Origin: Nitrosopumilaceae archaeon
GTDB lineage: Archaea > Thermoproteota > Nitrososphaeria > Nitrososphaerales > Nitrosopumilaceae
Reading direction: 5' to 3'
NCBI GenBank assembly: GCA_965207375.1
Contig: OZ242274.1
Span: forward strand, 1,092,905-1,156,904
Length of the DNA: 64,000 nucleotides
The notes below the pieces were generated by a model. That model saw only the letters and a program-made list of their open reading frames with translations. It did no database searches and was not told where the DNA came from. A program made the position numbers and the translations under genes. Positions 7,129 to 53,572 of this stretch are shown here, piece by piece; within the stretch, counting starts at the first letter, position 1; each line of letters begins with the position of its first letter.

Positions 7129-8500
7129 TGAGAAATCACGCCTGATTTTTTCCAAACTGTACAAAAAAAATACACAAGGTAAGAAAATATCTGCAAGAAC
7201 AGTAAAAGATCAGATCGATTTAATCCAAACATGAAAGAGGCCAAGCTCTTATCTGATATACGCAGAACCGAAAAGGAAGGACGTCGTGCCCGAAGATTAA
7301 GTATGTTAATCGTACTTGCAAATATGGATTACATAGTCACAGCAGCTGCTGTCACATATAGATGCAACAGAAAAACAGTATCACTGTGGCGTGACAGAAG
7401 AATTCAATACGGAAACAACATAAGTAAAATACTCGAGGCACTTTCAGACAGACCTAGGTCAGGCAGACCTACAAAGATAAGCAAAAAACATCTAGACAAA
7501 GCCAAATCATGGTGTGACATACGCACATTTACGCCAATAGAGATGCAAAATTATCTTGAAAAAATTTCAGGAGTCAAGTTGAGTCTATCACAGACAAGAC
7601 GATACATCAAAAAGTGGGGACACTCTTGCAAAAAAACATCTCCCCTGCACATCAAAAGAGCATCACCTGAATCTGTAGCAAAATGGTATACAAGCAGCAT
7701 GGGCAAAGTGAGATACTATGCAAAGCAAGGATATGCAATAGCTACCATGGATGAGTCCCACTTTAAGGACGCAGTGCTTTCTACAAAATACTGGGCAAAG
7801 AGAGGCCTTTGCATATTCATGCCATGGTCAGGCGGACACCACAGATTCTCAATGCTGTGTACTATAACTGATAATGGCAAGCACTTTTTCAATCATACAG
7901 ACAAAGTAAACACTGACAGCTTTTTAGAGCACATTGAAAAAGTATACCAAAAGGTGGGCAAGATGGTATTGTTTTTGGATGAGGCACCCTGGCATGCATC
8001 TATTGGTGCACAAGAATTTTTCGAAAAACGAGACATTGTATTGATATGGTATCCTGTGGGTCATCCGTATCTTAATCCCGTAGAGGAGATCTGGAGTGTA
8101 CTCAAGCGTACAATTGATTACTCTATACGATACTCAGACATCAAGACACATTTGACAGCAGTATACGGATTTATCAAAAAATATGAGTTTGATTATGATT
8201 TAAAAAAACATTGGAAGAGAAAACCTCCTGCTGGTATAATGCGACCCTTTGTGCGCTCTGACACAAAACACAATGATAGGATCCAGGCATTACAGGTAAG
8301 CAGTAAGCCAAGAAATCGTAACTGAACTATACATGTATTGATGGTTTGTACAATTGTTGTATGTATTTACAAAATGATACCGTGTGGAATCATCATGCTG
8401 TCTTTGCTTAATCTTGGTGTATTGTGTAAGTTGTGTAAGATTTTATTCCTGCGTCTAGTTTGCTGATTTTGTGCTGGGTACGAACTTTTGCGCATCGCTA
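7064..8500 (+). mobile_element. IS630/Tc1-mariner family insertion sequence (1437 bp) with 28-bp TIRs and a TA target duplication
   Basis: The left end tagcgatgcgcaaaagttcCtacccagc (7064-7091) matches the reverse complement of 8473-8500 with 1 mismatch in 28. A TA dinucleotide sits immediately outside both ends (7062-7063 and 8501-8502). A single transposase ORF lies inside. Confidence 0.9.
7231..8325 (+). CDS. IS630-family DDE transposase
   Basis: N-terminal HTH region, then MDESHF ... LFLDEAPWH ... NPVEEIWSVLK, which is the D, D, E spacing pattern typical of IS630/Tc1. Confidence 0.85.
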   Translation: MKEAKLLSDIRRTEKEGRRARRLSMLIVLANMDYIVTAAAVTYRCNRKTVSLWRDRRIQYGNNISKILEALSDRPRSGRPTKISKKHLDKAKSWCDIRTFTPIEMQNYLEKISGVKLSLSQTRRYIKKWGHSCKKTSPLHIKRASPESVAKWYTSSMGKVRYYAKQGYAIATMDESHFKDAVLSTKYWAKRGLCIFMPWSGGHHRFSMLCTITDNGKHFFNHTDKVNTDSFLEHIEKVYQKVGKMVLFLDEAPWHASIGAQEFFEKRDIVLIWYPVGHPYLNPVEEIWSVLKRTIDYSIRYSDIKTHLTAVYGFIKKYEFDYDLKKHWKRKPPAGIMRPFVRSDTKHNDRIQALQVSSKPRNRN

Positions 8501-15738: not shown

Positions 15739-17874
15739 TTAATTTGTAGCCTCTATTTTCTTTAAGGTGTCAGCTATTTGTTGCCATAGTGGATTAGAAT
15801 ATTTTTGGGTATTGTTTTGGGCTTCGGCTGCAGTCATAGGATTATCATGTTCTGTAATGTTAAATGCTGCCAAGACTCTATTCCATAAATCAGCTTGTTC
15901 TTTTACAACTTCAATTAAAGTTGCATTTATCGTGTATGTTGGTTCAGGTACTGGTTCTACTATAGGTGTTGGTTCTACTATAGGTGTTGGTTCTACTATA
16001 GGTGTTGGTTCTACTATAGGTGTTGGTTCTACTATAGGTGTTGGTTCTACTATAGGTGTTGGTTCTACTATAGGTGTTGGTTCTACCTGTGATGTATCTT
16101 GAGCAACGGCTGATGTTTGGTTAACCTGTGGTACGTGTATTTCCTGTGGCTCTTGCTGTGGTGTATTTTGTGTTGCATTTTGCTGCTGCTGCTGTTGTTC
16201 AATTGCAGCCTCACGCTCTTGTAAGATATTTGCAATCTTGACCCATAATGGACTAGAATATTTCTTTGTATTTGCCTGTGCCTCTGCTGCAGTAAGTGGA
16301 TTATCATGTTGTATCACTCCAAATGCTGCAAGTGCTCTATTCCATCTGTCAACATGTTGGTGACCGTGATGTACTTGACTTGCAAGGTACTTTATGTCCT
16401 CAATTAGTTCTGGGTCAGCTGTAGGTATTGGTATAGATTCTGGTACAATTATCGGTGTATCTTGTGCGATATTTGATGTGTGGTTAATTTGTGGTACGTG
16501 TATTTCCTGTGGTTGCTGTGGTGAATCTTGAGGTTGCTGTGCGGCTGCATCCCTTGCAGCCTCTAATTTAGCCAGTTCTTGAGCAACTAAACCCCAAAAT
16601 GCATTATTGTATTTTTTTACATTGGCCAGAGCCTCTGCTGCAGTCATAGGATTGTCATGTTGTATTTCTCCAAATGCTGCCAAGACCCTATTCCATCTGT
16701 CAACGTGTTCTGCACCAAGATGAGTTTGTTGTGCCATTATCTTTGCACCGTCTATTACTGATGGATCAATTTCATCATACGGATTTTCTGGTATTGGAAC
16801 ACCGGTTGTGAGTCTGGGTTGTCCGTCACCGCCACCATCATCATCCTGTATTAAGATTACAGCACGCGATGGGTCACCTATAGTATATCCATTACCTGGA
16901 AGTAACGTAAATGTGACGCTTCCATCTGCTTCATCTGTGGAATCATCTAATGTAGCTAGACTGACAGTCCGGGCGTTTGATGTTAATATAATTGACCTAT
17001 CGTTCAGTTCAAAATTAAGCCGAGCATATTCTCCTACTTGGGAAGTTCGATAATTTACTGTTACAGGATTTATTGATGTGGCTGGAGGTGATATAGTTAT
17101 TTCTGCTATAACGGTAGCACCTTCAATCACTGATACAGGATTAATTGTGGAAGGTAGAATTGTCACTACATTAGCTGTTCCAATCTGTGTCTCCCAAAAA
17201 TGTTGGCTAGCATACCTTGCATCAGACGGATTATTTGGATGTATCCACTCATGGAGGTATGGGCTATCTACAGTGCGTTCTACTATAGGTGAAACCATGA
17301 CAAGTAGTGATTCGGGACTGCCACCATAATTGGCTACATTTGTAGACCATGAGGCACTACCTGTATTTGACCCTGCATTGATGGTTATCTTTTTGTAGGT
17401 GACAGGAAGGTAGGTGGGGTTGGTTCCTAAATCCCTGTCGGCCGTGCTACTGTAGGTTGCAAATGTTTCAGTGTCGCTGCTAGTGCCGCCGAGGGTGGCA
17501 TGAGTGGTACTACTACATAGGTTTGCTGCACTTGACCTGACAGAAGCGTGAGATGCATGACAGTCATTAAGCTGTGCATAAAATTCTATTTTCTCTCCTG
17601 TTTTGAGGTGCTCATCTAGAGTTACAGTTACTGTGATGGGTTGACCAGAAGCGGGATTGTTTAGTGTGACTAGGGCTCTGTTTATCTCATTGTCATCTGT
17701 ATAAAATTGAGGGGCCATTGTAACGGATGGCACAATTGGGTGACAGGCAGTGTGGAAATTCGTTTCGCCGTTTATGCGGCAAAGCACATGGTCAGAAAAT
17801 GCCTCTGGTGTTTGAACACCGAGCAATAATGATATAGAAACTGCCATAATAACTGCAAAGTATAATGTTTTCAC
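15739..17874 (-). CDS. Secreted multi-repeat cell-surface protein (711 aa)
   Basis: GTG start with a signal peptide. The N-terminal ~345 aa are paralogous to 1..1018 and end in a Calx-beta-like block (DGSVTFTLLPGNGYTIGDPSRAVILIQDDD). Three ~65-aa helical modules follow, joined by Q/P-rich linkers and (EPTPIV)x7. Confidence 0.85.
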   Translation of the reverse strand: MKTLYFAVIMAVSISLLLGVQTPEAFSDHVLCRINGETNFHTACHPIVPSVTMAPQFYTDDNEINRALVTLNNPASGQPITVTVTLDEHLKTGEKIEFYAQLNDCHASHASVRSSAANLCSSTTHATLGGTSSDTETFATYSSTADRDLGTNPTYLPVTYKKITINAGSNTGSASWSTNVANYGGSPESLLVMVSPIVERTVDSPYLHEWIHPNNPSDARYASQHFWETQIGTANVVTILPSTINPVSVIEGATVIAEITISPPATSINPVTVNYRTSQVGEYARLNFELNDRSIILTSNARTVSLATLDDSTDEADGSVTFTLLPGNGYTIGDPSRAVILIQDDDGGGDGQPRLTTGVPIPENPYDEIDPSVIDGAKIMAQQTHLGAEHVDRWNRVLAAFGEIQHDNPMTAAEALANVKKYNNAFWGLVAQELAKLEAARDAAAQQPQDSPQQPQEIHVPQINHTSNIAQDTPIIVPESIPIPTADPELIEDIKYLASQVHHGHQHVDRWNRALAAFGVIQHDNPLTAAEAQANTKKYSSPLWVKIANILQEREAAIEQQQQQQNATQNTPQQEPQEIHVPQVNQTSAVAQDTSQVEPTPIVEPTPIVEPTPIVEPTPIVEPTPIVEPTPIVEPTPIVEPVPEPTYTINATLIEVVKEQADLWNRVLAAFNITEHDNPMTAAEAQNNTQKYSNPLWQQIADTLKKIEATN
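15953..16086. repeat. Seven perfect 18-bp tandem repeats plus a partial eighth, encoding (EPTPIV)n
   Basis: The unit ggttctactataggtgtt repeats without a single mismatch from 15953 to 16078. The partial copy runs to 16086. Confidence 0.95.
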
Positions 17875-25555: not shown

Positions 25556-26662
25556 ATGTTTGGCATGAAACAAAATATGCAAATTACAATATTGGTTCTA
25601 GTTACTGCAACTACATTTACAGGTGTTGCAATATTGCCAGGTGTTGCAGCACAGGATGCATCTGTTCCTAGTTGGATTAAAAACACTGCAAAATTCTGGT
25701 CTACAGGAGACATATCTGATACTGAATTTCTCAACGCCATAAAATATCTTGTTGAAAACCAGATAATTCAGATAGATGAGGGCAGCTCAGATGCGCAATT
25801 AGACGTTGACGAATTGACAATTGGATTCATTCCTGTTGAAAAAGCAGACGAGCTAACTCCAAAAGCCAAAGCATTAGAGCTATTTCTTGAAGAAAGACTT
25901 GGCATAGATGTAAAAATTGTCATTCCAACAAACTATGAGACAATAATTGAGGGAATGAGATTTGGACACATTGATGCTGCATTTATGGATACAGGTCCTG
26001 CATGGATAACGCACCAAAGAACCGGTGCACAGGCAGTTTTGGCAGAGGTAGTTGCAGGCAAAATCAATTATCAGGCAACTGTTTGGACTAGCGCAGACAA
26101 TGACTCGATTCATACTATTGAGGACACCCTAGGAAAGCGCGTTGCTTTTACTAGTATTACCGGTTCTTCTGGATTTGTACGACCCATGGGGACCTTGGTT
26201 ACAAGTGGCGCAATAGATATTTCAGGTAGCGACATTGTTGCCTTGGAGGCAGCACTTGCTGATTCCTTTGATGAATATACCTTTGCTGGCGGCTACAAGG
26301 CTGCCTTGCAATTGTTACTAAATGACAACGTAGATGTTGCATTTGGCTCTGATATCGCACCGCAAAAATACCTGCAATTATCTGATCAGCAAAAACTTAG
26401 ACCGGTAACGACTATAGGCCCTGTTCCGTCCCATGTGTTCATGGTTGCTCCAGAGGTATCTGATGGTACAAAGCAGGCACTAGTTGATGCACTAGTCCAA
26501 CTCAATTATGATAAACACAACGAAATTCTTCAAAATCTGTATGGTGCAGAGGCATTACTTCCAACTACTACTGCACTGCACATTGGTGAATTTGGTACCT
26601 TCATTGACGCACTGACTGGCCTTGATCAAAAAATACTTGATAAATACAACAAAAGCAAATAA
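25556..26662 (+). CDS. phnD: Phosphonate/phosphite ABC transporter substrate-binding protein with an N-terminal extension
   Basis: The PhnD-like core is TIGFIPVEKADELTPKAKALELFLEERLGIDVKIVIPTNYETIIEGMRFGHIDAAFMDTGPAW. It is preceded by a signal/anchor and a ~60-aa module (PSWIKNTAKFWSTGDISDTEFLNAIKYLVENQII). Confidence 0.85.
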   Translation: MFGMKQNMQITILVLVTATTFTGVAILPGVAAQDASVPSWIKNTAKFWSTGDISDTEFLNAIKYLVENQIIQIDEGSSDAQLDVDELTIGFIPVEKADELTPKAKALELFLEERLGIDVKIVIPTNYETIIEGMRFGHIDAAFMDTGPAWITHQRTGAQAVLAEVVAGKINYQATVWTSADNDSIHTIEDTLGKRVAFTSITGSSGFVRPMGTLVTSGAIDISGSDIVALEAALADSFDEYTFAGGYKAALQLLLNDNVDVAFGSDIAPQKYLQLSDQQKLRPVTTIGPVPSHVFMVAPEVSDGTKQALVDALVQLNYDKHNEILQNLYGAEALLPTTTALHIGEFGTFIDALTGLDQKILDKYNKSK

Positions 26663-26693
26663 AAAGCAAGAGTCAATATTGACAATACAACAA

Positions 26694-27494
26694 ATGTCCT
26701 CTGATTCTTTTTCTCTAATAAACACCACAACTATAATTCAAATGAATGATGTCTGGACATCTTATGACTCTAAAAATTATGCATTAAAAAGTATCAAAAT
26801 GTCAATAGATAGGGGCACCAATTATGCAATTGTTGGTGTCTCAGGCTCTGGAAAATCTACACTTGTAAAATTACTCAACGGTATGATGAAACCAAGCAAG
26901 GGAATAATCAAGGTAGACTATCAGACCCCTGACATTGCTAGTCCACAATTTCGTAAATTAATGCACAAAATAGGTTATATTCCTCAAAATCTGGGTCTTG
27001 TAAAAAATTTAACGGTCAAAGAAAATATTTTGATTGGTTCCCTTCCGAGACTGGGAAAGGTCCAATCATTTTTCAAATCATTTCCCAAAGATGAACTAGT
27101 CTACGCAGAACAGCTATTGGGCATGGTGGGACTGTCTGGAAAAGCAACGCGCAAGGCCTACATGCTAAGTGGTGGTGAAAAACGTCGTGTTGCAATAGCA
27201 CGTGCCCTAATGCAAAAACCTGACATATTGCTAGCAGATGAGATTGTTTCAGAATTAGATCATGTTACTGCGCATGAAATAATGGATCTAATTGTTGATG
27301 CACAAAAAAGACTAGGTCTCACTGCCATTATGGTTCATCATGATATGCAACTTGCATTAGAATATGCAAACAGAGTTGCAGTTATCAAAGAGGGAGAAAA
27401 AATATTGGAAATTGGAGTGGAAGGTGACCAAATTGTTGATTTTCAAACGGGTAATCTAACACAAGAAGAAATATTAGAGATGTATGCCAAATGA
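26694..27494 (+). CDS. phnC: Phosphonate ABC transporter ATP-binding protein
   Basis: Walker A GVSGSGKST, signature LSGGEKRRVAIARAL, and Walker B ILLADE. The ORF opens at 26622 but ATG 26694 avoids overlap with phnD. Confidence 0.85.
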   Translation: MSSDSFSLINTTTIIQMNDVWTSYDSKNYALKSIKMSIDRGTNYAIVGVSGSGKSTLVKLLNGMMKPSKGIIKVDYQTPDIASPQFRKLMHKIGYIPQNLGLVKNLTVKENILIGSLPRLGKVQSFFKSFPKDELVYAEQLLGMVGLSGKATRKAYMLSGGEKRRVAIARALMQKPDILLADEIVSELDHVTAHEIMDLIVDAQKRLGLTAIMVHHDMQLALEYANRVAVIKEGEKILEIGVEGDQIVDFQTGNLTQEEILEMYAK

Positions 27495-28279
27495 ATCAAA
27501 AAAGCAATCTCCTAGTTGGTATAATTATTGCAATTGTGATTGCAGCATCAATTAATGTCGATGCCAACCCTTTAGATTTTGCCCAGGGTCTGCCCAATCT
27601 TGTAATTATTGCACAGGAAATTGCCTTGGGGATAACTGATTTGAGTCTGTTTCAAACCGCCTTTTTTGCAATGTTTGAAACAGTACAGATGGCCTTTATT
27701 GGAACAATTGTAGGTGTGGCAATTGCAATGCCTTTGAGCCTGCTTGCTGCTAGAAATCTTAACAGCAAATGGGTTTATGCTCCGATTCGTGCACTGCTTG
27801 CTGCCATCCGAACATTTCCGTCAATTCTGTGGGCAATCCTGTTTGTTATAATGGTGGGTTTAGGACCATTTGCTGGAGTGTTGGCAATTATCATGTATAC
27901 TATTGGGTTTGTTGCAAAACTACAGTATGAAGCAATTGAAACAATTGATTCAGATCCTATGGATGCAGTAACATCAATTGGTGTAAGCAAGGCTCAGCTT
28001 ATACGTTATGTTGTAATTCCAGAATCTGCATCTCATCTGTTAAGTCAGGTACTTTACATGTTTGATTATAACGTACGTCAAACAAGCATTTTGGGAATTG
28101 TAGGTGCAGGAGGTATCGGCTTTTATATTATTAATTATATAAAATTTTTCGAATATGGTAAAGCGGTAATTTTCATGCTGGTAGTTTTGGCTACTGTACT
28201 AGTAATTGATTTGATTAGCGTAAAGATTCGTGACAGATATATTATAAAATCACAACGCGGCATGCAGGTCAAAGCATAG
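27491..28279 (+). CDS. phnE: Phosphonate ABC transporter permease
   Basis: Polytopic protein with an EAA-like loop (DPMDAVTSIGVSKAQLIRYVVIPE). 4-nt overlap with phnC. Confidence 0.85.
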   Translation: MNQKSNLLVGIIIAIVIAASINVDANPLDFAQGLPNLVIIAQEIALGITDLSLFQTAFFAMFETVQMAFIGTIVGVAIAMPLSLLAARNLNSKWVYAPIRALLAAIRTFPSILWAILFVIMVGLGPFAGVLAIIMYTIGFVAKLQYEAIETIDSDPMDAVTSIGVSKAQLIRYVVIPESASHLLSQVLYMFDYNVRQTSILGIVGAGGIGFYIINYIKFFEYGKAVIFMLVVLATVLVIDLISVKIRDRYIIKSQRGMQVKA

Positions 28280-28508
28280 TTTGCAACCTTTTTGGCAAAT
28301 TGATGCTTTTGTAAAAATCCACATGATTTAGCATCAGATGTTGATATGATTGTACAATTTGTTAAATCATAATTTGTCATACTTTAGAATACAACTGCAC
28401 ACGATCCTACAAAACTTTGGAAAATCTCTATCTGACTAAAAGATTGATCAAACATACTCAATATTTTTGTCTTATATTGGTCATTTAGAATCAAAACATT
28501 TTTTGTTT

Positions 28509-30275
28509 TTATCGTGTTTCATCTACACAAAATGTTACCTCTGATGAGGATGCAGCACTTGAAGATACCAAAAAATTTAGTGCATTTGCAATTTTGTCAT
28601 TATCTGGCTCTGCCCCTGTGACTGAACCCGGAAACACTGTAAATATTCTGACCTGTGATTTTAAAACATCACTTAATTCCTGATTGACAGTTGTAGTGTA
28701 TGGTCTTAGTGCTCCTCTAAACACCTCAACTTGCATTCTTTTTATGCCTGGAATTTTTTTACCGGTTGGCAGATCAGGGCCAATAATTAGCATTGAACCT
28801 GTTGCATTCTTGTACAGTCTGGGATCCTTTCTGCCTCCTGGAACAAAATGTTCCAATGTCTGTTGGGCAACAGTTGCAGGTGTTGTAATGAATTTTGCAA
28901 CTAGCTGTTCCCAATCATTTCTTGCTAATTCTACAAGTTTTGCAAACTCTGGCAGTTTGCCGGTTATGTGAACTACTGCTAAGACCTTGCCCATGGTTTT
29001 TTCTACCGTATTTAGCCAACTTGACACCTCTTGAGGATTTGTAATGTCTATCACATGGGAGTGAAATTTTTCACTAATGGAATCTTGTAGTTTTTGTGGC
29101 GTACTGTTTGAAATAAAGCATGCAGTTTTGCCTCCATTTTTCTCCACATATGCTGCTAGGTGTTGCACTCTTGCAGCATCTGTTTGGTCTGTGGCATCTA
29201 CTGTAAACACTATGGTTTTGTCTGTAAAATCTATTTGGTGTACGTTGGGTGTTGCATTTCCAACATGTGCCTTGACTGGATAAAATACTCTGTCTCCTGG
29301 AATTACCTTTCCGTTGATGATCTGTGCTATTTTATCATCACACAAGTTAAGAACTGACTCTGCAACCTGTTCTTGCTTTAGAAATTCTTTATCTGCAATC
29401 ATATGTGATGTATTGTTTTGGATTTTTCCTGCAAGTGTTCTGATTTGCTCCAAGAGTCTTGTAAATGTATCAGTTAATTTTGCAACATCTCTTCCGTTTG
29501 CTAACCTTTGTGCAGCTTTTGCAACTCCTTCCTTGTTTACTCCGTCTGCCTGTATGCATTCTAGCAAATCCTCTCTTGTCTCTTCGACTTGTACAGGACT
29601 TAGATCTTCAAACCCTCCGACTCTCATAAATTCAAAAGCAGCCTTTGGATATACTGTTTTGTAAATCCTATCAGAGTGTACTGGACCAGGGTTTGTAGCT
29701 ATAGATATGATTCCCTTTTCTGCCAACTCCCATGACATTGCCTCTGCAAGTCTGTTTTTTGCTCCTTGTGCTGCAGTGTATGGAGTTCTGAACCTGTACG
29801 GTCTTTGCTCTAGCGGTCTCTCTTCTGTAAAAAATGTTGAAATTGTAATTATTTTACCTCCTTTTTTCATCACTTTGAGACCCTGAACCGATGTCCAAAA
29901 CGTCCCTGTAAGGTGAATTCCTACTGCACTTTTGAACTCATCTAGTACTGCATTTGGAAAACATGTCACAGGACCTGAAACTCCGGCATTGTTAATTATG
30001 TAATCTATTATAACATCTTCATTTTTTAATGACTCAAACATCTTGTTGATTCCATCAGCATCACTTACATCTACGCCATCAAAAATTTTCACAAATGCAT
30101 TACTTTGTTTTTCAACAATTATTTTTTCTAGTATTTTGGCAGTCTCTGCTAACGGTTCCCTGCGTCTGCCTAAAATTATGACGCTTGCCCCATTTTCAAC
30201 AAATTTTTCAGCAATTGTTTTTCCAATGCCTGTTCCACTACCAGTAATTAGGGCTAGTTTGCCTTGAAATTTCAT
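28509..30275 (-). CDS. Two-domain short-chain dehydrogenase/reductase-like oxidoreductase (588 aa)
   Basis: N-terminal TGSGTGIGK Rossmann motif and NNAG motif. The active-site region reads ISTFF...PYTAAQGAKN, followed by NPGPVHSDRI. The C-terminal ~330 aa lack a canonical glycine motif. Confidence 0.8.
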   Translation of the reverse strand: MKFQGKLALITGSGTGIGKTIAEKFVENGASVIILGRRREPLAETAKILEKIIVEKQSNAFVKIFDGVDVSDADGINKMFESLKNEDVIIDYIINNAGVSGPVTCFPNAVLDEFKSAVGIHLTGTFWTSVQGLKVMKKGGKIITISTFFTEERPLEQRPYRFRTPYTAAQGAKNRLAEAMSWELAEKGIISIATNPGPVHSDRIYKTVYPKAAFEFMRVGGFEDLSPVQVEETREDLLECIQADGVNKEGVAKAAQRLANGRDVAKLTDTFTRLLEQIRTLAGKIQNNTSHMIADKEFLKQEQVAESVLNLCDDKIAQIINGKVIPGDRVFYPVKAHVGNATPNVHQIDFTDKTIVFTVDATDQTDAARVQHLAAYVEKNGGKTACFISNSTPQKLQDSISEKFHSHVIDITNPQEVSSWLNTVEKTMGKVLAVVHITGKLPEFAKLVELARNDWEQLVAKFITTPATVAQQTLEHFVPGGRKDPRLYKNATGSMLIIGPDLPTGKKIPGIKRMQVEVFRGALRPYTTTVNQELSDVLKSQVRIFTVFPGSVTGAEPDNDKIANALNFLVSSSAASSSEVTFCVDETR

Positions 30276-30531
30276 GGATAAAGTTTACTATAATCTGTGA
30301 TATTTATTTGGATTGATCCCAAGGGTAAAGTTTGTATCTGTGCCTTGAATTATCTAGTATCAACAGTTTGTTACATACTACAGCCAAATCCAAACAACTG
30401 ATTTTACTGTGTTTTTTTGTGAACCTTGCCATGTGTATGAATTTGCACAGTCCTGTTGATCTCTAGAAAAACTTTAAGATCTTGTCTGATTTTTCTGATA
30501 TGTTTATTTGTGGGTTTGATTTGTAAAAATT

Positions 30532-30771: not shown

Positions 30772-31146
30772 ATGCAAGACACTGATCCATTACCATGGGG
30801 AGCCCTAGACAGATTCCAGGCACATTTTATTGTAAAAAAAGAAACAGACTCTAATGTGATTGATTATCTTGCTCGGGCAGAACTAGACACCAATGGGCAT
30901 TTTGGCAGAAAAAAAATCATCTCTATTAGCTGGAACGGTGGCAAATTGGCATCTGCCCTAAATGACGACTCTGAATTAAACCAAATGATTGCTCATCAGC
31001 CAATTAACCAGGCAAGCATTGTTGTAGAACCCACCGATAATGTAGTTAGGATTTATAGTAAATGGCAAAACAGAGATGATCTTGGCATTTCAAAAGAGAT
31101 GTTTGAAATCTATAACCGCATTGCAGGACACATAAAAAACCTCTAG
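30772..31146 (+). CDS. Hypothetical protein (124 aa)
   Basis: Clean ORF in the same frame as 30532..30768. Confidence 0.5.
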   Translation: MQDTDPLPWGALDRFQAHFIVKKETDSNVIDYLARAELDTNGHFGRKKIISISWNGGKLASALNDDSELNQMIAHQPINQASIVVEPTDNVVRIYSKWQNRDDLGISKEMFEIYNRIAGHIKNL

Positions 31147-31676
31147 GCCCTCCACCAATCTAATGCAAGAAAATCCACATCATTGGTTCTAGGTATTGCC
31201 AAAATGAATTGTTTTCTTACAGTAGTTGCAAGCCTTCCTGCAAGCACTACTCCTGTAGCCGTTATTGGTTCTCTGGAATTGCATACCTGTACCAGATATG
31301 GCGCATGTTCTAGTCCGGGGCCTTTTTGATACACTGCAAAATCACATCCAAACTTTATGCCTGGATTTACAATGTATCCTCGGTCCCTGAAATTTTTATA
31401 AACTTGATATTTTTTGTCAAAATTATAATATTGTTGACTGCAAATCTTTTGCATTTTTTTAATTCCTATTTTGCTTTTTAAACTTGTGATTTTAATTTTG
31501 CCTTTTTCTAACAGATAGCATCCTTCAATCAAATCTAAAATTAACGGTACGTTAATTTCTTCAGGTTTTGGCTTTGGCATTCCTATAGGCTTTCCATAAT
31601 ATCCACTAGAAAATAATTTTTTGGAATCTGCAATGTTCCATACTATTATCCTGTTGTCTATTAGTTCAGCCTTCAC
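31143..31676 (-). CDS. endA: tRNA-splicing endonuclease
   Basis: YKNFRDRGYIVNPGIKFGCDFAVYQKGPGLEHAPYLV matches the catalytic C-terminal domain of archaeal EndA. Confidence 0.9.
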   Translation of the reverse strand: MKAELIDNRIIVWNIADSKKLFSSGYYGKPIGMPKPKPEEINVPLILDLIEGCYLLEKGKIKITSLKSKIGIKKMQKICSQQYYNFDKKYQVYKNFRDRGYIVNPGIKFGCDFAVYQKGPGLEHAPYLVQVCNSREPITATGVVLAGRLATTVRKQFILAIPRTNDVDFLALDWWRA

Positions 31677-33955: not shown

Positions 33956-35649
33956 GTAACATTCCCACTTTCTAAAGTTCCTTATATAGTCAGGCAGTAA
34001 AGCATAAGGATCACCACTATCAGCATAAAATATGCTGCCAGGATTTGATCTTGAGGGAATAGATTGGAAGAATCCCGATGTCAACAGGCTTTTCGAGGTT
34101 CTTACTGAAAAATTTGATCAAATGGATAAACAAATTAAAGATCTACAAAAAGACAATCATCTAAAAGATGTAAAAAGTGAACAAGTGATTGCAGAAAATA
34201 AACAGCTAAAAGAAGAAATGGTTCAACTAAAAAAACTCATAGCAAAGCTGCAAAAGAAAAAAACAAGATCCAGTCATGTCAGTAGCTATAACACCAGAGA
34301 GTACAAGGGATACCCAAAGATCAAAAAACAAAAGACACAGCCAAAATATACACAGCAAGAATCTGAGACTAACAATCTAACCATAGATCACAAGTTTTGT
34401 CCACAATGTGGTAATGCTCTTGCAGATTCATCAAGCAAATACACCAGAAACGGTGAATCAATAATAGACGGCAAATGGTCTAACGTCAATATGACCATTG
34501 TAGGCAGATACTGCAAAAAATGTGCACAAATGCAATATGCAAAACCTGTTGACTTTTTGTCCAATGAAAAATTTAGCATCACTATAATGGCAAGAATTTC
34601 TACAATGAGACACCTGACTATATCGTATGGCAAAATACAGAAACTCTTGCAGATGTTTTACGGCAAAAATATGGCAATCTCTACACTAGAAAGACTTGAT
34701 GCGCAAGCCTCAAAATGCCTAGAACCGCTCTACTATTCGCTTCTTGATGAGATTACCAAGGCAAAAATCGTAGGAGGTGATGAAACAGGATGGTATCTAA
34801 ACGGCAAACTATGCTGGGCATGGGTGTTTCATTCGATATACACGGTAGTATATCACATCTCACAATCTAGAAGCAAAATGGTATCTGAGACGTTTCTAAA
34901 GGATTTTGAGGGCATACTAATGGGTGACTCTCATCCTGGATGGAGTGTTGCAGACATACTTCAAAAATGCCTGCTACACTATTTCAGGGACATGTACAGA
35001 ACGCTTGAAAAAAATGACAAAAAAGAATTTCAGAGCTTCTTTGATGAACTATACAAGATACTAAAATCTGCAATAAAGCTTGGCAAAAAACATGACACAG
35101 TACAGGACATTACAAAGGGCAGTATAACCAAACTGCAAAAAAGAATCAATGCACTTGCTACAGGAACATATGAGGATGAAGATTGTCTCAGATATGTAAA
35201 GCGACTAAAGCGTGAGGGTAACTCTTTGCTGACATTTCTAAAATATGATGGCGTGCCGTACCACAACAACGCAAGCGAGCAGGCAATGCGCATATTTGCC
35301 ATAATGCGAAAAGTATTCTACGGTAGTCGCTCAGAGAAAGGCCTCAAAACCACAGAGATACGTCAAAGCATATTTGCCACATGTGAAAGGCGCGATGTAA
35401 ATCCGTATCCGTTTGTCAAGGAATATCTGCGTGGCAATATCAAAGAAATCCCCATTCCAAAAGTCACAGTTGCTGCATGATATAATCAAATGTACAGTGT
35501 ATAATACACAAAATTTGATGCTGTATGATCATTTCTATAGTCTGGATATGTTCTGTGCCGGTTCATTGTCGTAAACTGCACTAGGGTTTTACATGCAGTT
35601 TCATGGATCATCTAAAAACCAGAGTAACTTCAGAAGGTCGATCTGTTAC
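33956..35649 (+). mobile_element. Complete single-ORF IS66-family element (1694 bp) with GTAA...TTAC ends and an 8-bp target duplication
   Basis: The left inverted repeat gtaacattcccactttctaaagttcc matches the reverse complement of the right end, gtaacagatcgaccttctgaagttac, at 19 of 26 positions. It is flanked by AAGATGCA at 33948-33955 and 35650-35657. Confidence 0.9.
34032..35480 (+). CDS. IS66-family transposase
   Basis: N-terminal coiled coil, zinc-finger-like CPQCG...CKKC, then GGDETGWYLNGKLCWAWVF and DSHPGW blocks typical of IS66 TnpC-type DDE transposases. Confidence 0.85.
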   Translation: MLPGFDLEGIDWKNPDVNRLFEVLTEKFDQMDKQIKDLQKDNHLKDVKSEQVIAENKQLKEEMVQLKKLIAKLQKKKTRSSHVSSYNTREYKGYPKIKKQKTQPKYTQQESETNNLTIDHKFCPQCGNALADSSSKYTRNGESIIDGKWSNVNMTIVGRYCKKCAQMQYAKPVDFLSNEKFSITIMARISTMRHLTISYGKIQKLLQMFYGKNMAISTLERLDAQASKCLEPLYYSLLDEITKAKIVGGDETGWYLNGKLCWAWVFHSIYTVVYHISQSRSKMVSETFLKDFEGILMGDSHPGWSVADILQKCLLHYFRDMYRTLEKNDKKEFQSFFDELYKILKSAIKLGKKHDTVQDITKGSITKLQKRINALATGTYEDEDCLRYVKRLKREGNSLLTFLKYDGVPYHNNASEQAMRIFAIMRKVFYGSRSEKGLKTTEIRQSIFATCERRDVNPYPFVKEYLRGNIKEIPIPKVTVAA

Positions 35650-39380: not shown

Positions 39381-40517
39381 CTAGTCAGGATCTTCGTAAT
39401 TTTGCTTTCTGTTTTCTGTGTCTTGCGCTCCCTCCACAGGCTTCATCTTTGATTTTAGCACGTCCATTCTTGCCTTGTAGCCTTCTGCATATTCTAGTTC
39501 GGATGGAACAAGAGTTGCCGGATGAATAAAACCCTGACTTCTAATTGAAAGTGCTTTCTTTGTAGCTATTTCTCTTATATAATCCCAGTCTGGAGTAGAA
39601 AATCCATCAAACGGTCCGGTAAGTTTTCCGTTGTGCATGCTAAACACAAGTGATTCCACAATTGGAATGCAAAAATCAATTGTAGCTGCCGAGTTTAGTT
39701 TTACTGGCATTAGTGGCATGTTATGACTTCCCCGTGTGTTACCTGCAACATAGTGTGGATTGTTAAACACACTTCCTGCCTCCTCGGTTGCAGGAAATCT
39801 CTTTTGAGTTCTTACAATACAAATTGGATCATCTTTTCCAACGTATGTTCCTGCTATGTTGTGTAGTCTGTCAGTTGATGCTGCAACAATTGGTTCACCG
39901 TCTTTGGTTGTAATTGTATCTACAACATATCTTCCCGGATACATCAACGCTGCCTCAATTGTAGGTTTGTCCTCCCATAACAACAGTTCTGCAACCTCTC
40001 CTTTTTCTACGTCCATGATGTTGATTTTGACTCCTTCTGCAAGTGATTTGTTTACAATTAATCCCGTGTTACTTAGTCCGTCAACGAACATTCTATAAAA
40101 TGGATAGTTAAACGCGCCAGGCTCTGTTTTATCTGCTGCAAATACTGTAAATGCTTCATTTGGTCTTTCTTCAAACTCCATTTCAGCCACACCTGGTCCC
40201 ATACCCTTGATGTTTCCTGAGAATGAATCCTTTAGCAAATCCTGCCCTGCACCGTACAGTCCCTCCTCTTTTGCAACTTGGGTACCTGCCATGAATGCAT
40301 CCCATGCTAGTTTGTGTATTTGTTGGTTTTGTACCCCACTAGTATGTGTCAAAAGAATATGAACATCATCACCACAATATCCTATGTATCTGTCAATCCA
40401 CAACTCTGAGCTGCCATCAACGATTTTTTTTACTGCGTCTAATAGTCCGTCACTTGGCCTTGTATGGCCGCCGATTCCGCCCACATCTGCCTTGATAACT
40501 GATACGGTAATTTTCAT
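39381..40517 (-). CDS. fbp: Bifunctional fructose-1,6-bisphosphate aldolase/phosphatase (class V FBPase)
   Basis: N-terminus MKITVSVIKADVGGIGGHTRP and overall length are typical of the archaeal type V enzyme. Confidence 0.95.
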   Translation of the reverse strand: MKITVSVIKADVGGIGGHTRPSDGLLDAVKKIVDGSSELWIDRYIGYCGDDVHILLTHTSGVQNQQIHKLAWDAFMAGTQVAKEEGLYGAGQDLLKDSFSGNIKGMGPGVAEMEFEERPNEAFTVFAADKTEPGAFNYPFYRMFVDGLSNTGLIVNKSLAEGVKINIMDVEKGEVAELLLWEDKPTIEAALMYPGRYVVDTITTKDGEPIVAASTDRLHNIAGTYVGKDDPICIVRTQKRFPATEEAGSVFNNPHYVAGNTRGSHNMPLMPVKLNSAATIDFCIPIVESLVFSMHNGKLTGPFDGFSTPDWDYIREIATKKALSIRSQGFIHPATLVPSELEYAEGYKARMDVLKSKMKPVEGAQDTENRKQNYEDPD

Positions 40518-45035: not shown

Positions 45036-46076
45036 TCATTTTTCTGCCTGATCTTTGTAGTTTATGCTGTCAGTGACTATTCTATATGCCTCATGTGCAG
45101 CAGCTTTAATTTTTTCTAAATCTAATTCCTTGTCACAAAACTGCCCACTTTTAACAGGAAAAAACACGTCATATTCTTTTTCGACATTTGTGTTTTGTAT
45201 ACATTGAATCTTTATGTCTCCGCTAGTTAATCCAACGTAACATTTTGCTTTTTGATCATACTCTGATATTGTTGCTGCATCCTCAAATGCCTGTACCAGT
45301 CGAGTCCTGCCTGTTTCATGTTGGAATTTACCGTATTGTTTTGTTCTATATGCAATTGCTTCATACAGCATATACATTGGATTTGTAACTCCGCCTTGTT
45401 CAGACCTTTTATATACGTCTGGGGCATCTATGATACATTGGTAATGTCCTACCATGTATGAACACGTACTGGAAATATTCCAAAAACCTGATTTGCTGAT
45501 TATGCAAGAAAGTGGTGCCACAAATTGTGATTTTTCTGATGCAGGTGCAATCATTATTCCTCTCTTTTTACTCATTCCTACAATGTATGGAGTTTGGTAC
45601 ATTTCTGACATCTTTTTAGCATCCTCTAATACGCCTACAAGTTGAAATCTACCTTCACTGAGAAATCCTATTTCTCCATAGTCTATTATGCCGTGTATCA
45701 GGGCATCTTGTACCTTTGCAATCATTTCATGTATCGTGTAACGTGCATAAGCAACATTGTCCCCAAATTCTTTTTCAGTGTTTGAATGTTTTTTAGAATC
45801 TTTGACAGGATGTACACTACACACAAATACAGAACTTGGGCGTTTTCTTGAATCAAATACGATTACCTTCTGATCATGACTTATTCCTATACAGTACGTT
45901 GTATTGTCCTGTATGGCCAAATTTGCCGTATCCTCAAGCACATCTTTGATTTTATCGTATGTCCATGAAGAATCAAGTCTACCGTATGTTTTCATGATGT
46001 CGTATGTGTTGTGTCTTATTTTATAGTGTATTGGTACGTACCCCATTACAAGGATACTTGCATTCATACAAGTCAA
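45036..46076 (-). CDS. Hypothetical protein with a threefold internal repeat (346 aa)
   Basis: Three ~105-aa modules each contain YG-x9-11-[VL]x[VA][LF]ED[AT]-x8-10-Y[CIV][IV]G[ILM][ST]. Confidence 0.65.
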   Translation of the reverse strand: MTCMNASILVMGYVPIHYKIRHNTYDIMKTYGRLDSSWTYDKIKDVLEDTANLAIQDNTTYCIGISHDQKVIVFDSRKRPSSVFVCSVHPVKDSKKHSNTEKEFGDNVAYARYTIHEMIAKVQDALIHGIIDYGEIGFLSEGRFQLVGVLEDAKKMSEMYQTPYIVGMSKKRGIMIAPASEKSQFVAPLSCIISKSGFWNISSTCSYMVGHYQCIIDAPDVYKRSEQGGVTNPMYMLYEAIAYRTKQYGKFQHETGRTRLVQAFEDAATISEYDQKAKCYVGLTSGDIKIQCIQNTNVEKEYDVFFPVKSGQFCDKELDLEKIKAAAHEAYRIVTDSINYKDQAEK

Positions 46077-50929: not shown

Positions 50930-53572
50930 CTATTTTGGTTTTTCAATTGCGGCCTGAGCTGCGGCAACAATTGCTATTGGTATCCTGTGTGGTGATGCGC
51001 TGACATAGCTTAGTCCTGCACTGTGACAAAACTTTATAGAGTTGGGATCTCCTCCGTGTTCTCCACAGATGCCAACCTCCATGTTGTGTTTAATTTTACG
51101 TCCGCCTGAAATTCCGATTTTAATTAGGCGGCCTACGCCATTTGCATCAATTGTTTGGAAAGGATTTCTCTCTAGCAGCTCCTTTTCCATATATTCTGGA
51201 AGGAATTTACCTTCCACATCTTCTCTGCTAAAACTAAAGGTTCCCTGTGTCAAATCATTGGTGCCAAAGCTGAAAAACTCTGCCGTATTTGCAAGCTCAT
51301 CTGCAGTTAACGCTGCCCTTACAACCTCTATCATTGTTCCAAAGTTTACTGTCAGCTTCATTTTGTTTTTGGCTTCGACCTCCTTTTTGATATCATCATA
51401 AATTTTCTTGATGTGATTTAATTCTGCAATACTGCTTATTTGTGGAATCATGATTTGTGGATGTGCCTTTATTTTTTTCTTTGTCAACTCCGCTAGGGCC
51501 TCAAAGACTGCCCGAATCTGCATCTGATAAATTTCAGGATATGTCACGCCCACCCTGACTCCTCTATGACCCATCATTGGGTTTACCTCTGCTAGCTGTC
51601 TGGCCCTTTTCAAAACAATTTCTGCTTTTTTGATCTCCTCTTTTGCCTCTAGTCTGTGAATTTTTTCTGCTAGCTCCTCAGGATTTGGCAGGAACTCGTG
51701 TAGTGGCGGATCAAGCAACCTGATTGTTACCTCATAGCCCTCCATCGCCTTTAGAATTGCAATAAAGTCACTTTTTTGCAATCGTCCCAATTTTTTAAGA
51801 ACCTGGGAGCGCTCTTTGGTGTTTTGTGCCATTATCATATCTACAAACAAGCCTATCCTGTCACTTGCGTTGAACATTCTCTCTGTTCTGCAAAGGCCTA
51901 TTCCTTTTGCGCCAAACCTTCTTGCTAGTCTTGCAGCTTCGGGCGTATCTGCATTTGCCCTGATTCCAAGTACCTTTGTTTTTTGCGCCCATGCAAGGAT
52001 TTGTTCAAAGTCCTTTGTCACCTTTGGCTCTACTGTTGGAACCTCTCCTAGAAAAACCGTTCCTGTACTGCCATCAATAGATACTGTCTGACCTTCCTTT
52101 AGGATATTTCCATTTGCAATACATTGGTTGTTATTATAATCAATCTTTAATTGTGCGCATCCTACAATGCATGGCTTTCCCATGCCTCTTGAAACAATTG
52201 CTGCATGAGATGACTTTCCTCCCAAGCTAGTCAGTATTCCTTGTGATGAAAAAAATGCAGGAACGTCTTCGGGTTTTGTTTCTTTTCTGATTAAGATGAC
52301 CTTTTTGCCTGCATCTCCTAACTCCATTGCCTTTTTTACATCAAAGACTGCAATTCCGCTAGCAGCTCCCGGAGATGCTGCAATGCCACGCACAAATTGT
52401 TTAAAATTCATGCATTTTGACTCGTCAACTGTTCTGTGCAACAATGCCTCTAATTGCTGTGCAGGAATTCTTACAAGTGCTCGTTTTTTGTCAACTAGTC
52501 TTTCTTTTACCATGTCTACAGATGTCTTTACTAGTGCCATGGCGCTCATTTTTGCAGTTCTTGTCTGCAACAGGTAGAATCGTCCCTGCTCTATGGTAAA
52601 TTCAATATCTTGTGGTTCTTTAAAGTGTCTTTCAAGCTTTGTACATGCATTGTATAGCTCACTGTATGATTTTGACATCTCTTTTTTGAGCAAGGCAACA
52701 TTTTTTCCGGTTCTAACTCCTGCAACAACGTCCTCTCCTTGCGCGTTGATCAGATATTCTCCCTCCAACTCCTTTTTGCCGTTGTGTCCGTTTCTGGTAA
52801 ATACTACCCCCGTTGCACTATCTGCACCCATGTTTCCAAACACCATTGCAACAACGTTGACTGCGGTTCCATCTGCAATGTCTTTTGTTATGTTATTTTT
52901 GTCACGATAAATTACTGCCCTTTCTCCCATCCAGCTTTTAAAGACTGCCTCAATTGACAGGCTCAGCTGTTCATTAGGAGAATCTGGAAATTTTTTCTTT
53001 GTGTGTTTTTCACATATTTTTTTATATTCAGACACGATCTTTTTTAACGATTCCACACTTAGATTGCTGTCATCTTTTACGCCCTGTCTGGATTTTGCAG
53101 AATCTAGTATATCATCAAACTTTTCATCATGTATTCCAAATACTACCTTGCCGAACAGCTGAATGAATCGCCTGTACGAATCCCAAGCAAAGCGTGGGTT
53201 TTTTGTTTGCTCAGCTAGGCCATCTACTGTTTTTTCATTTAATCCCAGATTCAAAATTGTATCCATCATGCCCGGCATCGATATTGCAGCACCGGAACGA
53301 ACAGAAACCAACAGTGGATTTTTTGTAGAATTCCATTTCTTTTTGGTTTTTTGCTCTATTTTTGCAATGTTTTTCATTACCATGGGCATGACATCTTTGG
53401 GCAGTTTCTGATGGTTTGCATAATATTTCTTACAAACCTCAGTTGTGATGATAAATCCAGGTGGTACAGGAAGCTTTAATCTAGTCATTTCACTTAGACC
53501 TGCACCTTTTCCACCCAAAAGCATCCTGTTTTTACTGTCTGCCTCCTCAAATGCATATACTGGCTTTGCCAT
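50930..53572 (-). CDS. ppdK: Pyruvate, phosphate dikinase
   Basis: Phospho-histidine region GGKSSHAAIVSRGMGKPCIVG and PEP-utilising C-terminal FFSFGTNDLTQ. Confidence 0.95.
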   Translation of the reverse strand: MAKPVYAFEEADSKNRMLLGGKGAGLSEMTRLKLPVPPGFIITTEVCKKYYANHQKLPKDVMPMVMKNIAKIEQKTKKKWNSTKNPLLVSVRSGAAISMPGMMDTILNLGLNEKTVDGLAEQTKNPRFAWDSYRRFIQLFGKVVFGIHDEKFDDILDSAKSRQGVKDDSNLSVESLKKIVSEYKKICEKHTKKKFPDSPNEQLSLSIEAVFKSWMGERAVIYRDKNNITKDIADGTAVNVVAMVFGNMGADSATGVVFTRNGHNGKKELEGEYLINAQGEDVVAGVRTGKNVALLKKEMSKSYSELYNACTKLERHFKEPQDIEFTIEQGRFYLLQTRTAKMSAMALVKTSVDMVKERLVDKKRALVRIPAQQLEALLHRTVDESKCMNFKQFVRGIAASPGAASGIAVFDVKKAMELGDAGKKVILIRKETKPEDVPAFFSSQGILTSLGGKSSHAAIVSRGMGKPCIVGCAQLKIDYNNNQCIANGNILKEGQTVSIDGSTGTVFLGEVPTVEPKVTKDFEQILAWAQKTKVLGIRANADTPEAARLARRFGAKGIGLCRTERMFNASDRIGLFVDMIMAQNTKERSQVLKKLGRLQKSDFIAILKAMEGYEVTIRLLDPPLHEFLPNPEELAEKIHRLEAKEEIKKAEIVLKRARQLAEVNPMMGHRGVRVGVTYPEIYQMQIRAVFEALAELTKKKIKAHPQIMIPQISSIAELNHIKKIYDDIKKEVEAKNKMKLTVNFGTMIEVVRAALTADELANTAEFFSFGTNDLTQGTFSFSREDVEGKFLPEYMEKELLERNPFQTIDANGVGRLIKIGISGGRKIKHNMEVGICGEHGGDPNSIKFCHSAGLSYVSASPHRIPIAIVAAAQAAIEKPK

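Follow-up and report, generated by a model that had tools for sequence, protein, structure and literature searches.

Which protein reduces malonyl-CoA in ammonia-oxidizing archaea (AOA)? Malonyl-CoA and succinyl-CoA reductase activities, two steps of the thaumarchaeal 3-hydroxypropionate/4-hydroxybutyrate (HP/HB) cycle, have been reported in cell extracts of SCM1, both listed as NADPH-dependent and neither with an assigned gene (PMC6038301; PMC4510362; PMC6964070). According to a 2020 paper, the malonyl-CoA reductase of N. maritimus was not identifiable by bioinformatics (PMC6964070); a curated marker set of 2026 contains no thaumarchaeal marker for this enzyme (PMC12894919), and our own literature search, in which Könneke et al. 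(2014) and Otte et al. (2015) were covered through citing papers, returned no gene assignment. A short-chain dehydrogenase/reductase (SDR) of Cenarchaeum symbiosum, 32% identical to the N-terminal domain of Chloroflexus malonyl-CoA reductase (MCR), had been mentioned as a tentative candidate (Hallam et al., 2006). The question is raised again by a gene encoding a 588-residue protein, probably a homologue of the Cenarchaeum SDR, in a stretch of 64 000 nucleotides (hereafter the window) from the genome of a Nitrosopumilaceae archaeon (assembly GCA_965207375.1, contig OZ242274.1, positions 1 092 905–1 156 904 of the forward strand). We consider this protein to be the best candidate for the CO2-fixation step that has no assigned gene in AOA, and we give about even chances to its being an NADPH-dependent MCR of the thaumarchaeal HP/HB cycle, possibly also reducing succinyl-CoA. 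By its sequence it is of a known kind, the MCR di-SDR superfamily, from which it differs in being a stand-alone form with a shifted catalytic lysine.

A predicted free-standing half of a malonyl-CoA reductase

The sequence-only reading of the window had singled out the classical SDR motifs TGSGTGIGK and NNAG and the blocks ISTFF and NPGPVHSDRI, all of which are located in the minus-strand open reading frame (ORF) of 588 residues. The only Pfam assignment of the protein is its N-terminal SDR (PF00106 adh_short, residues 6–202, E 9.4e-37; adh_short_C2, the enoyl-ACP reductase model, E 1e-31). No NCBIfam model scored above its cut-off for this protein, and public records label the family merely as a generic SDR oxidoreductase. 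The residues Thr147, Tyr160, Arg163, Tyr166, Gln170 and Lys173 are invariant in 25 orthologues, with identity down to 44%; this invariance, together with the adh_short E value, places the set of motifs beyond chance. The best matches among PDB sequences are the Roseiflexus MCR (PDB entry 8hi4; E 9e-34) and the Chloroflexus MCR (PDB entry 8hjw; E 1e-29), so that the resemblance to MCR proposed in the sequence-only reading corresponds to a significant alignment. In this search, the N-terminal SDR shows no preference between SDR1 and SDR3 of bifunctional MCR; a search with the C-terminal domain alone gave only weak matches to FabG (E 3.5e-4).

We built an AlphaFold2 model from the alignment of the 25 orthologues (pLDDT 89.4, pTM 0.90), in which the sole low-confidence stretch is the loop 149–157 (pLDDT < 50). 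The model comprises a catalytic Rossmann domain (residues 1–204), a helical lid (approximately 205–335, with helices 202–220, 227–238, 248–258, 264–291 and 301–319) and a second Rossmann-like domain (336–588). What had been described as a second domain of about 330 residues without a glycine motif indeed lacks this motif, but is divided in the model into the lid of about 130 residues and a pseudo-SDR of about 250 residues. The two-SDR architecture proposed at the outset is well matched by MCR, with a Z score of 34 over about 500 residues. Superposition gave Z 34.0 and an rmsd of 2.9 Å over 522 residues for the C-terminal, CoA-ester-reducing half of MCR (MCR-C), and Z 33.9 and 2.8 Å over 489 residues for its N-terminal, alcohol-forming half (MCR-N; VIA); the best single-domain SDR reached Z 28. 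As modelled, the protein is thus a free-standing ‘half MCR’ with one catalytic SDR and one pseudo-SDR. The four tandem SDRs (two catalytic and two pseudo-SDRs) in a chain of about 1220 residues that characterize the bifunctional MCR of the Chloroflexus type (K14468) are not found in its 588 residues; the fold unit of a catalytic SDR followed by a pseudo-SDR is present (Z 34.0 and 33.9 over 489–522 residues), as are YxxRxxY and the NADP+-binding Arg and Asp, according to the alignment and to their invariance.

The ligand-binding residues are of particular relevance here. In the Roseiflexus enzyme (RfxMCR), NADP+ and the malonyl carboxylate are held by R616/R41, D651, Y743, R746, Y749 and R785 (PMC10470521). 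All of their counterparts are invariant in the archaeal family: Arg37 (R41/R616), Asp69 (D651), Tyr160, Arg163 and Tyr166 (Y743, R746 and Y749) and Arg203 (R785). Global similarity does not discriminate between the two halves of MCR, since the hhalign scores (293 for MCR-N versus 281 for MCR-C), the Foldseek E values (1.3e-27 versus 3.8e-28) and the Z scores given above are all tied. The profile and structure comparisons proposed in the sequence-only reading score both halves equally, and we turned to local features.

Active-site periphery and position of the lysine

The substrate loop, from the catalytic Ser/Thr to YxxRxxY, has 10 residues in the archaeal protein, close to the extended loop of about nine residues of MCR-C (nine in 18 of the 20 parsed units). 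It has four residues in all 22 MCR-N units and four in the ‘partner’ clade, which groups the second di-SDR units of bacterial fusion proteins (see below). At positions +4 and +7 after the catalytic Tyr the pair is Gln/Lys here, Lys/Gln in MCR-C and Lys/Leu in both MCR-N and the partner clade. In the lid, the columns of Tyr209-x-Lys211 hold Y/F-x-R/K in MCR-C, a gap in MCR-N and M/A-x-N in the partner clade. The pseudo-SDR helix 523–529 reads L-R-P-x3-T, compared with L-R/H-P/T-x3-T in MCR-C, I-E/Q-Q-x3-V in MCR-N and L-R/Q-Q-x3-T in the partner clade; the columns of Leu523, Arg524 and Pro525 are occupied in MCR-C by Leu (17/18), Arg or His (13/18) and Pro or Thr (12/18), and in MCR-N by I/V, E/Q and Q/E. 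Arg524 aligns to an R/H column of SDR4, which might be that of Arg1164 of MCR-C. The representative 1229-residue MCR in this alignment is that of Ca. Thermochlorobacter, not that of Roseiflexus. Only two local features are MCR-N-like, namely the R-I-x2-V-Y segment that follows PGP and Thr147, at which position MCR-C has a Ser. The MCR-N combination of a Thr-Tyr-Lys triad, a four-residue loop and Leu at +7 is not found: the Thr is present, with a loop of 10 residues, Gln at +4 and Lys at +7. Judged from these sequence features, the periphery of the active site resembles that of the CoA-ester-reducing half.

Compared with the MCR-C of Chloroflexus aurantiacus, Roseiflexus castenholzii and Porphyrobacter dokdonensis (PDB entries 8a8t, 8hi5 and 6k8u), the protein has the same layout of catalytic SDR, lid and pseudo-SDR, and shares the Arg and Asp contacts to NADP+, YxxRxxY, PGP-x3-R, the long loop, a Lys and a Gln at +4/+7, Y-x-[RK] in the lid and L-R-P/T-x3-T. 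It differs in its low identity (17–18%), in standing alone at 588 residues instead of within a chain of about 1220, in the exchanged Lys and Gln positions and in having Thr147 in place of Ser. Its lid is about 70 residues shorter than that of MCR-C, in which the extra domain carries the CoA/malonate-binding PGL…RR segment (L795, R799) and SDR4 carries Arg1164. With MCR-N (PDB entries 8hi6, 8aew and 6k8v) it has in common the di-SDR layout, 21% identity, the catalytic Thr, YxxRxxY, R-I-x2-V-[FY] after PGP and a similar length, whereas MCR-N has the four-residue loop, Lys at +4, Leu at +7, a gap at Tyr209/Lys211 and I-E/Q-Q instead of L-R-P in the pseudo-SDR helix.

The position of the lysine is unusual. 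The active-site block includes ISTFF (residues 145–149) and YRFRTPY (160–166), followed by Y166-TAA-Q170-GA-K173, in which a Gln occupies the classical Lys position (+4) and the Lys is found at +7. The Y-x6-K spacing noticed in the initial inspection is confirmed by the invariance of Tyr166, Gln170 and Lys173 in the 25 orthologues. The classical TGxxxGxG (TGSGTGIG, 11–18) and NNAG (95–98) are present, as are Thr147 and Tyr166, but the Tyr-x3-Lys of classical SDRs is not, the Lys lying at +7 in 25/25 orthologues and in 16/16 sequences inspected of the wider clade that shares this signature (Q/K clade), where Gln170 and Lys173 are also invariant. In the model, Tyr166, Gln170 and Lys173 all belong to the helix 164–183, and from helix geometry the positions i, i+4 and i+7 should share a face. 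Given that MCR-C has an invariant Lys at +4 and Gln at +7, which are exchanged here, this points to a swapped functional pair rather than to a lost lysine.

Tyr-x6-Lys is a working arrangement in SDRs of the FabI/InhA type (Tyr156/Lys163 in FabI and Tyr158/Lys165 in InhA). We may therefore wonder whether the protein is an enoyl-thioester reductase of this type, catalysing the acryloyl-CoA reductase step. The spacing of Tyr166 and Lys173 equals that of FabI and InhA, the adh_short_C2 model matches with E 1e-31 and this step of the cycle also has no assigned gene (PMC6038301). The spacing is, however, the only divergent-SDR trait that fits: these enzymes combine it with a non-classical Gly motif and no NNAG, whereas the archaeal protein has the classical TGxxxGIG and NNAG, the Ser/Thr of the triad and a second, pseudo-SDR domain. 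Moreover, the carboxylate-binding YxxRxxY is invariant although acryloyl-CoA has no free carboxylate, and the bacterial fusions described below already contain a separate enoyl reductase of the medium-chain dehydrogenase/reductase (MDR) type. We regard this explanation as scarcely credible.

In a maximum-likelihood tree of the catalytic domains, MCR-N (support 100), MCR-C (100), the Q/K clade (SH-aLRT 99, with the archaeal proteins grouped within it at 97) and the partner clade (99) are each recovered. The archaeal protein falls in the Q/K clade and is placed within neither MCR-N nor MCR-C. The specific likeness to the alcohol-forming half that had been suggested from sequence alone is thus not borne out: the global scores are tied, the clade is a separate one and the local features are MCR-C-like.

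Relatives, distribution and proposed function

Close relatives are few in an exhaustive HMMER search. The Q/K signature is also seen in multidomain proteins encoded in metagenome-assembled genomes (MAGs) assigned to Deltaproteobacteria, Thermodesulfobacteriota, Ca. Binatia, Ca. Deferrimicrobium and Chlamydiota, and all 16 Q/K-clade sequences inspected have Y-x2-R-x2-Y-T-x-[AS]-Q-x2-K and the long loop. The bacterial Q/K units share with the archaeal protein the clade (SH-aLRT 99), the signature, the long loop and a full-length hhalign score of 603; they differ in sequence (30–36% identity) and in being fused to a second di-SDR, a hydratase and a reductase, whereas the archaeal protein stands alone. 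In RJP24553.1 (2579 residues; Deltaproteobacteria MAG GCA_003598145.1), an MDR enoyl reductase (61–320) and an enoyl-CoA hydratase (610–804) are combined with a Q/K di-SDR and a di-SDR with the classical triad; about 600 residues (roughly 810–1450) have no Pfam match, and a gene for an AMP-forming ligase lies directly downstream on the opposite strand. From its domains and the adjoining ligase, this set looks like one that covers the path from malonyl-CoA to propionyl-CoA, for which Chloroflexus uses Mcr and Pcs together. The second di-SDR in the bacterial fusions is MCR-N-like, with a four-residue loop, Lys at +4 and Leu at +7, and by complementarity the reduction of the CoA ester would be left to the Q/K unit. 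The order of the domains was considered as a further argument and set aside as uninformative, the Q/K unit being N-terminal while its partner bears the MCR-N-like signature.

The closest non-archaeal relatives in the tree are found inside two giant predicted proteins, P0125 (5945 residues, JGI) and P0126 (5572 residues, NCBI), at 32–36% identity over the full length. These also contain phosphoenolpyruvate carboxykinase, alanine dehydrogenase, enoyl-CoA hydratase and AMP-binding domains, and may be merged eukaryotic gene models or real megaproteins.

Among 121 genomes of the order, the gene is present as a single copy in 47 of the 48 AmoA-positive genomes, which belong to four families, the only miss being a genome that is 67% complete; it was found in none of the 73 AmoA-negative genomes. 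In a class-level sample it is present in 86/86 genomes of three AOA families and in 0/64 genomes of nine other families. This tally includes one unpublished genome (G131) and the alcohol dehydrogenase tally given below another (G251); our claims are independent of both. A single copy is present in the source genome (4.3 Mb, four contigs, 99.95% complete), in which no second MCR-like protein was found. The size of this genome is two to three times that of the other sampled Nitrosopumilaceae (typically 1.1–2.2 Mb), its congeners having 1.6–3.2 Mb.

We also searched the source genome for other enzymes that could be involved. It encodes one aldehyde dehydrogenase, presumably of the Nmar_1608 type, with best scores against non-acylating NADP-dependent succinic semialdehyde dehydrogenases, and two Semialdhyde_dhC proteins, both away from the reductase gene. 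If the latter are Asd and ArgC/LysY, as we assume, no spare paralogue is left for an MCR of the Sulfolobales type. An iron-dependent alcohol dehydrogenase (Fe-ADH) of the Nmar_1110 type is present, in addition to a second, weaker match to this family that we take to be glycerol-1-phosphate dehydrogenase. A former KEGG assignment of succinyl-CoA reductase to Nmar_1608 is described as wrong in PMC4510362. For the malonyl-/succinyl-CoA reductase of Sulfolobales (Asd family, K15017), the resemblance to the 588-residue protein ends with the reaction and the place in the pathway proposed for the latter, which is of a different fold and has no Pfam match to a Semialdhyde_dh domain.

A dedicated malonic semialdehyde reductase is described for Nitrosopumilus (Otte et al., 2015, as cited in PMC5797428 and PMC4510362). 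Nitrosocaldus has no Fe-ADH malonic semialdehyde reductase, and SDRs have been listed as possible substitutes (Abby et al., 2018; PMC5797428). Our survey agrees for the two AmoA-positive families concerned, f2 (Nitrosocaldus-like) and f15, in which we found only weak Fe-ADH-family matches, again taken to be glycerol-1-phosphate dehydrogenase, and no Fe-ADH of the Nmar_1110 type; there, the present protein could be the semialdehyde reductase. More generally, it could be the functional equivalent of MCR-N, an alcohol-forming enzyme that produces 4-hydroxybutyrate from succinate semialdehyde or 3-hydroxypropionate from malonate semialdehyde. Thr147 matches Thr165 of the MCR-N triad, YxxRxxY also binds malonate semialdehyde in SDR1 (PMC10470521), MCR-N ties with MCR-C overall and is favoured by the bacterial Q/K units, and succinic semialdehyde reductase is likewise without an assigned gene in SCM1 (PMC6038301). 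On the other hand, the loop, the Lys/Gln pair and the motifs of both lid and pseudo-SDR resemble those of MCR-C, the MCR-N-like signature sits on the other unit of the bacterial fusions, the strongly conserved basic residues of the lid and pseudo-SDR are not obviously needed for a C3 or C4 aldehyde, and the source genome already has its Nmar_1110-type Fe-ADH. We therefore find such a role unlikely.

The mixture of the MCR-N Thr147 with the loop and Lys/Gln pair of MCR-C might also suggest a single active site that carries out both reductions, from malonyl-CoA through the aldehyde to 3-hydroxypropionate, in the manner of SDR-type fatty acyl-CoA reductases. This would matter most in f2 and f15, which have the gene and no Fe-ADH of the Nmar_1110 type. 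But a second catalytic di-SDR beside the bacterial unit implies one step per unit, and Nitrosopumilus has the dedicated reductase mentioned above, as far as the citing papers report it; we give very little credence to a two-step enzyme.

Several observations weigh against the assignment as an MCR. The catalytic Thr147 is that of MCR-N and not the Ser of MCR-C, and the lid segment PGL-x2-RR with R799 is not conserved: Tyr209 and Lys211 fall in the MCR-C columns of Y/F and R/K, yet PGL and the second Arg are missing. The global comparisons favour neither half, the deep nodes of the catalytic-domain tree are poorly supported (30–81) and for the bacterial Q/K units the hhalign score with MCR-N exceeds that with MCR-C (332 versus 268). 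The Fe-ADH of the Nmar_1110 type, expected to act on the semialdehyde, is missing from f2 and f15, and no linkage to HP/HB-cycle genes was seen at the locus, whose neighbours are uninformative. As for the phyletic pattern, ammonia oxidizers are one lineage, so that it amounts to about one evolutionary event and not to independent statistical support; it would suit any trait specific to this lineage.

This last point leads to a function outside the cycle, for instance a lipid, cofactor or osmolyte reductase acting on another carboxylated or CoA/ACP-like substrate. The distribution follows the ammonia-oxidizer lineage rather than the cycle specifically, the gene has no genomic linkage to cycle genes and the altered catalytic motif may go with a different chemistry. 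Yet every MCR residue that holds the malonyl carboxylate and NADP+ is kept, the bacterial members of the clade are fused to enzymes leading from 3-hydroxypropionyl-CoA to propionyl-CoA, and the source genome contains no other candidate for a CoA-ester reductase among the families searched. We judge a role outside the cycle to be quite improbable.

We thus return to the assignment as an MCR, for which the following mechanism can be proposed. The enzyme would reduce malonyl-CoA to malonate semialdehyde, and perhaps succinyl-CoA to succinate semialdehyde. The N-terminal SDR would bind NADPH through its Gly motif, Arg37/Arg38 and Asp69, and Tyr160-x2-Arg163-x2-Tyr166 would hold the acyl group by its free carboxylate, with Thr147 polarizing the thioester carbonyl and Tyr166 acting as the acid. 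Lys173, one helical turn past the usual site, would replace the classical Lys in binding the ribose and lowering the pKa, and Gln170 would occupy the vacated site, in a swap of the Lys(+4)/Gln(+7) pair of MCR-C. The flexible 10-residue loop, the lid (Lys206, Lys211 and Arg218) and the pseudo-SDR (Arg520 and Arg524) may enclose the CoA moiety. The resulting aldehyde would be passed on to a separate malonic semialdehyde reductase of the Fe-ADH type, which is also encoded in the source genome.

A stand-alone MCR-like SDR had been put forward from the outset as a candidate for the CoA-ester-reducing step without an assigned gene, and the homology to MCR makes this reasonable. We would extend it only tentatively, and with more doubt than belief, to a single promiscuous di-SDR with a relocated lysine that reduces both malonyl-CoA and succinyl-CoA, accounting for two of the four steps in the HP/HB cycle that have no gene, with bacterial relatives that form an unrecognized fused megaenzyme from malonyl-CoA to propionyl-CoA. 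With one conserved gene whose product has an appropriate fold, cofactor site and carboxylate site, the question comes down to the expression and assay of one protein. Were the assignment as an MCR correct, the gene would be a proper metagenome marker for a step whose gene at least one study could not detect (PMC6964070). Archaeal and bacterial 3-hydroxypropionate pathways would then use related enzymes at this point, the Sulfolobales enzyme coming from an unrelated family, which would mean a non-homologous replacement of the Sulfolobales-type enzyme. For the production of 3-hydroxypropionate, an oxygen-tolerant mesophilic MCR with an unusual Tyr-x6-Lys site would also become available.

The locus and its neighbours

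The features of the gene are collected in Table 1. From its surroundings the gene looks monocistronic: a convergent phosphonate-type ABC transporter lies downstream (25556–28279), and a tRNA-splicing endonuclease is encoded upstream on the same strand (31143–31676). The A/T-rich AAATAAATA box may correspond to an archaeal TATA element, in which case the mRNA would be monocistronic, with a short leader or none.

Table 1. Features of the reductase gene and its product (coordinates in the window)
Feature	Coordinates	Strand	Remarks
Complete coding sequence, 588 residues plus TAA stop	28509..30275	(-)	ATG start; MCR-like di-SDR protein
Catalytic SDR core, residues 1–204	29664..30275	(-)	Pfam adh_short 6–202, E 9.4e-37; aligns to RfxMCR SDR1 6–220 and SDR3 583–786
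Gly-rich dinucleotide-binding motif TGSGTGIGK, residues 11–19	30219..30245	(-)	T11 to G18 invariant
R37-R38, predicted NADP(H) 2'-phosphate contact	30162..30167	(-)	Both invariant; R37 gaplessly aligned to RfxMCR R41 and R616
NNAG, residues 95–98	29982..29993	(-)	Read from sequence and orthologue alignment
Active-site block, residues 145–176: T147, 10-residue loop, Y160-x2-R163-x2-Y166, Q170 (+4), K173 (+7)	29748..29843	(-)	Sequence, orthologue alignment and model
NPGPVHSDRI, residues 195–204	29664..29693	(-)	R203 aligned to RfxMCR R785
Helical lid/extra domain, residues 205–335	29271..29663	(-)	Y205, K206, Y209 and R218 invariant; K211 near-invariant
Pseudo-SDR, residues 336–588	28512..29270	(-)	Rossmann-like fold; Gly-rich motif and Tyr/Lys pair absent; aligns with MCR SDR2 and SDR4
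Pseudo-SDR helix F519-R520-G521-A-L523-R524-P525	28701..28721	(-)	All numbered residues invariant; candidate arginines for substrate binding: R520 and R524
A/T-rich AAATAAATA box, 26–34 nt 5' of ATG	30301..30309	(-)	Read from sequence

In many Nitrosopumilaceae, a hotdog-like ORF of 150 residues, with no significant Pfam match, follows the reductase gene at a distance of 3–10 nt (compare L002:3274–3726 and L005:3267–3716); the congener G109 has it as well. This ORF is not in the 230-nt spacer of the present locus (28280–28508, minus strand), and a same-genus query gave no match in the whole source genome, while the positive control in relatives matched; it was also not found in the large-genome congeners G152 and G153. 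Whatever its role, the 150-residue partner is dispensable.

Finally, it should be noted that, among the central-carbon genes mentioned in the sequence-only reading, fructose-1,6-bisphosphatase (39381–40517) and pyruvate phosphate dikinase (50930–53572) lie in the window, but the catalytic subunit of methylmalonyl-CoA mutase is encoded 4.2 kb past its end (contig positions 1161116–1162639), and no mutase domain was seen among the scanned window ORFs. Three long ORFs on the minus strand were left without a Pfam match, at 15739–17874 (711 residues; E 1e-3), 45036–46076 (346 residues) and 2–1018 (339 residues; E 1e-5 for the last two). Transposases of the IS66 family (34032–35480) and of the DDE_3 type (7231–8325) are encoded near the reductase gene.

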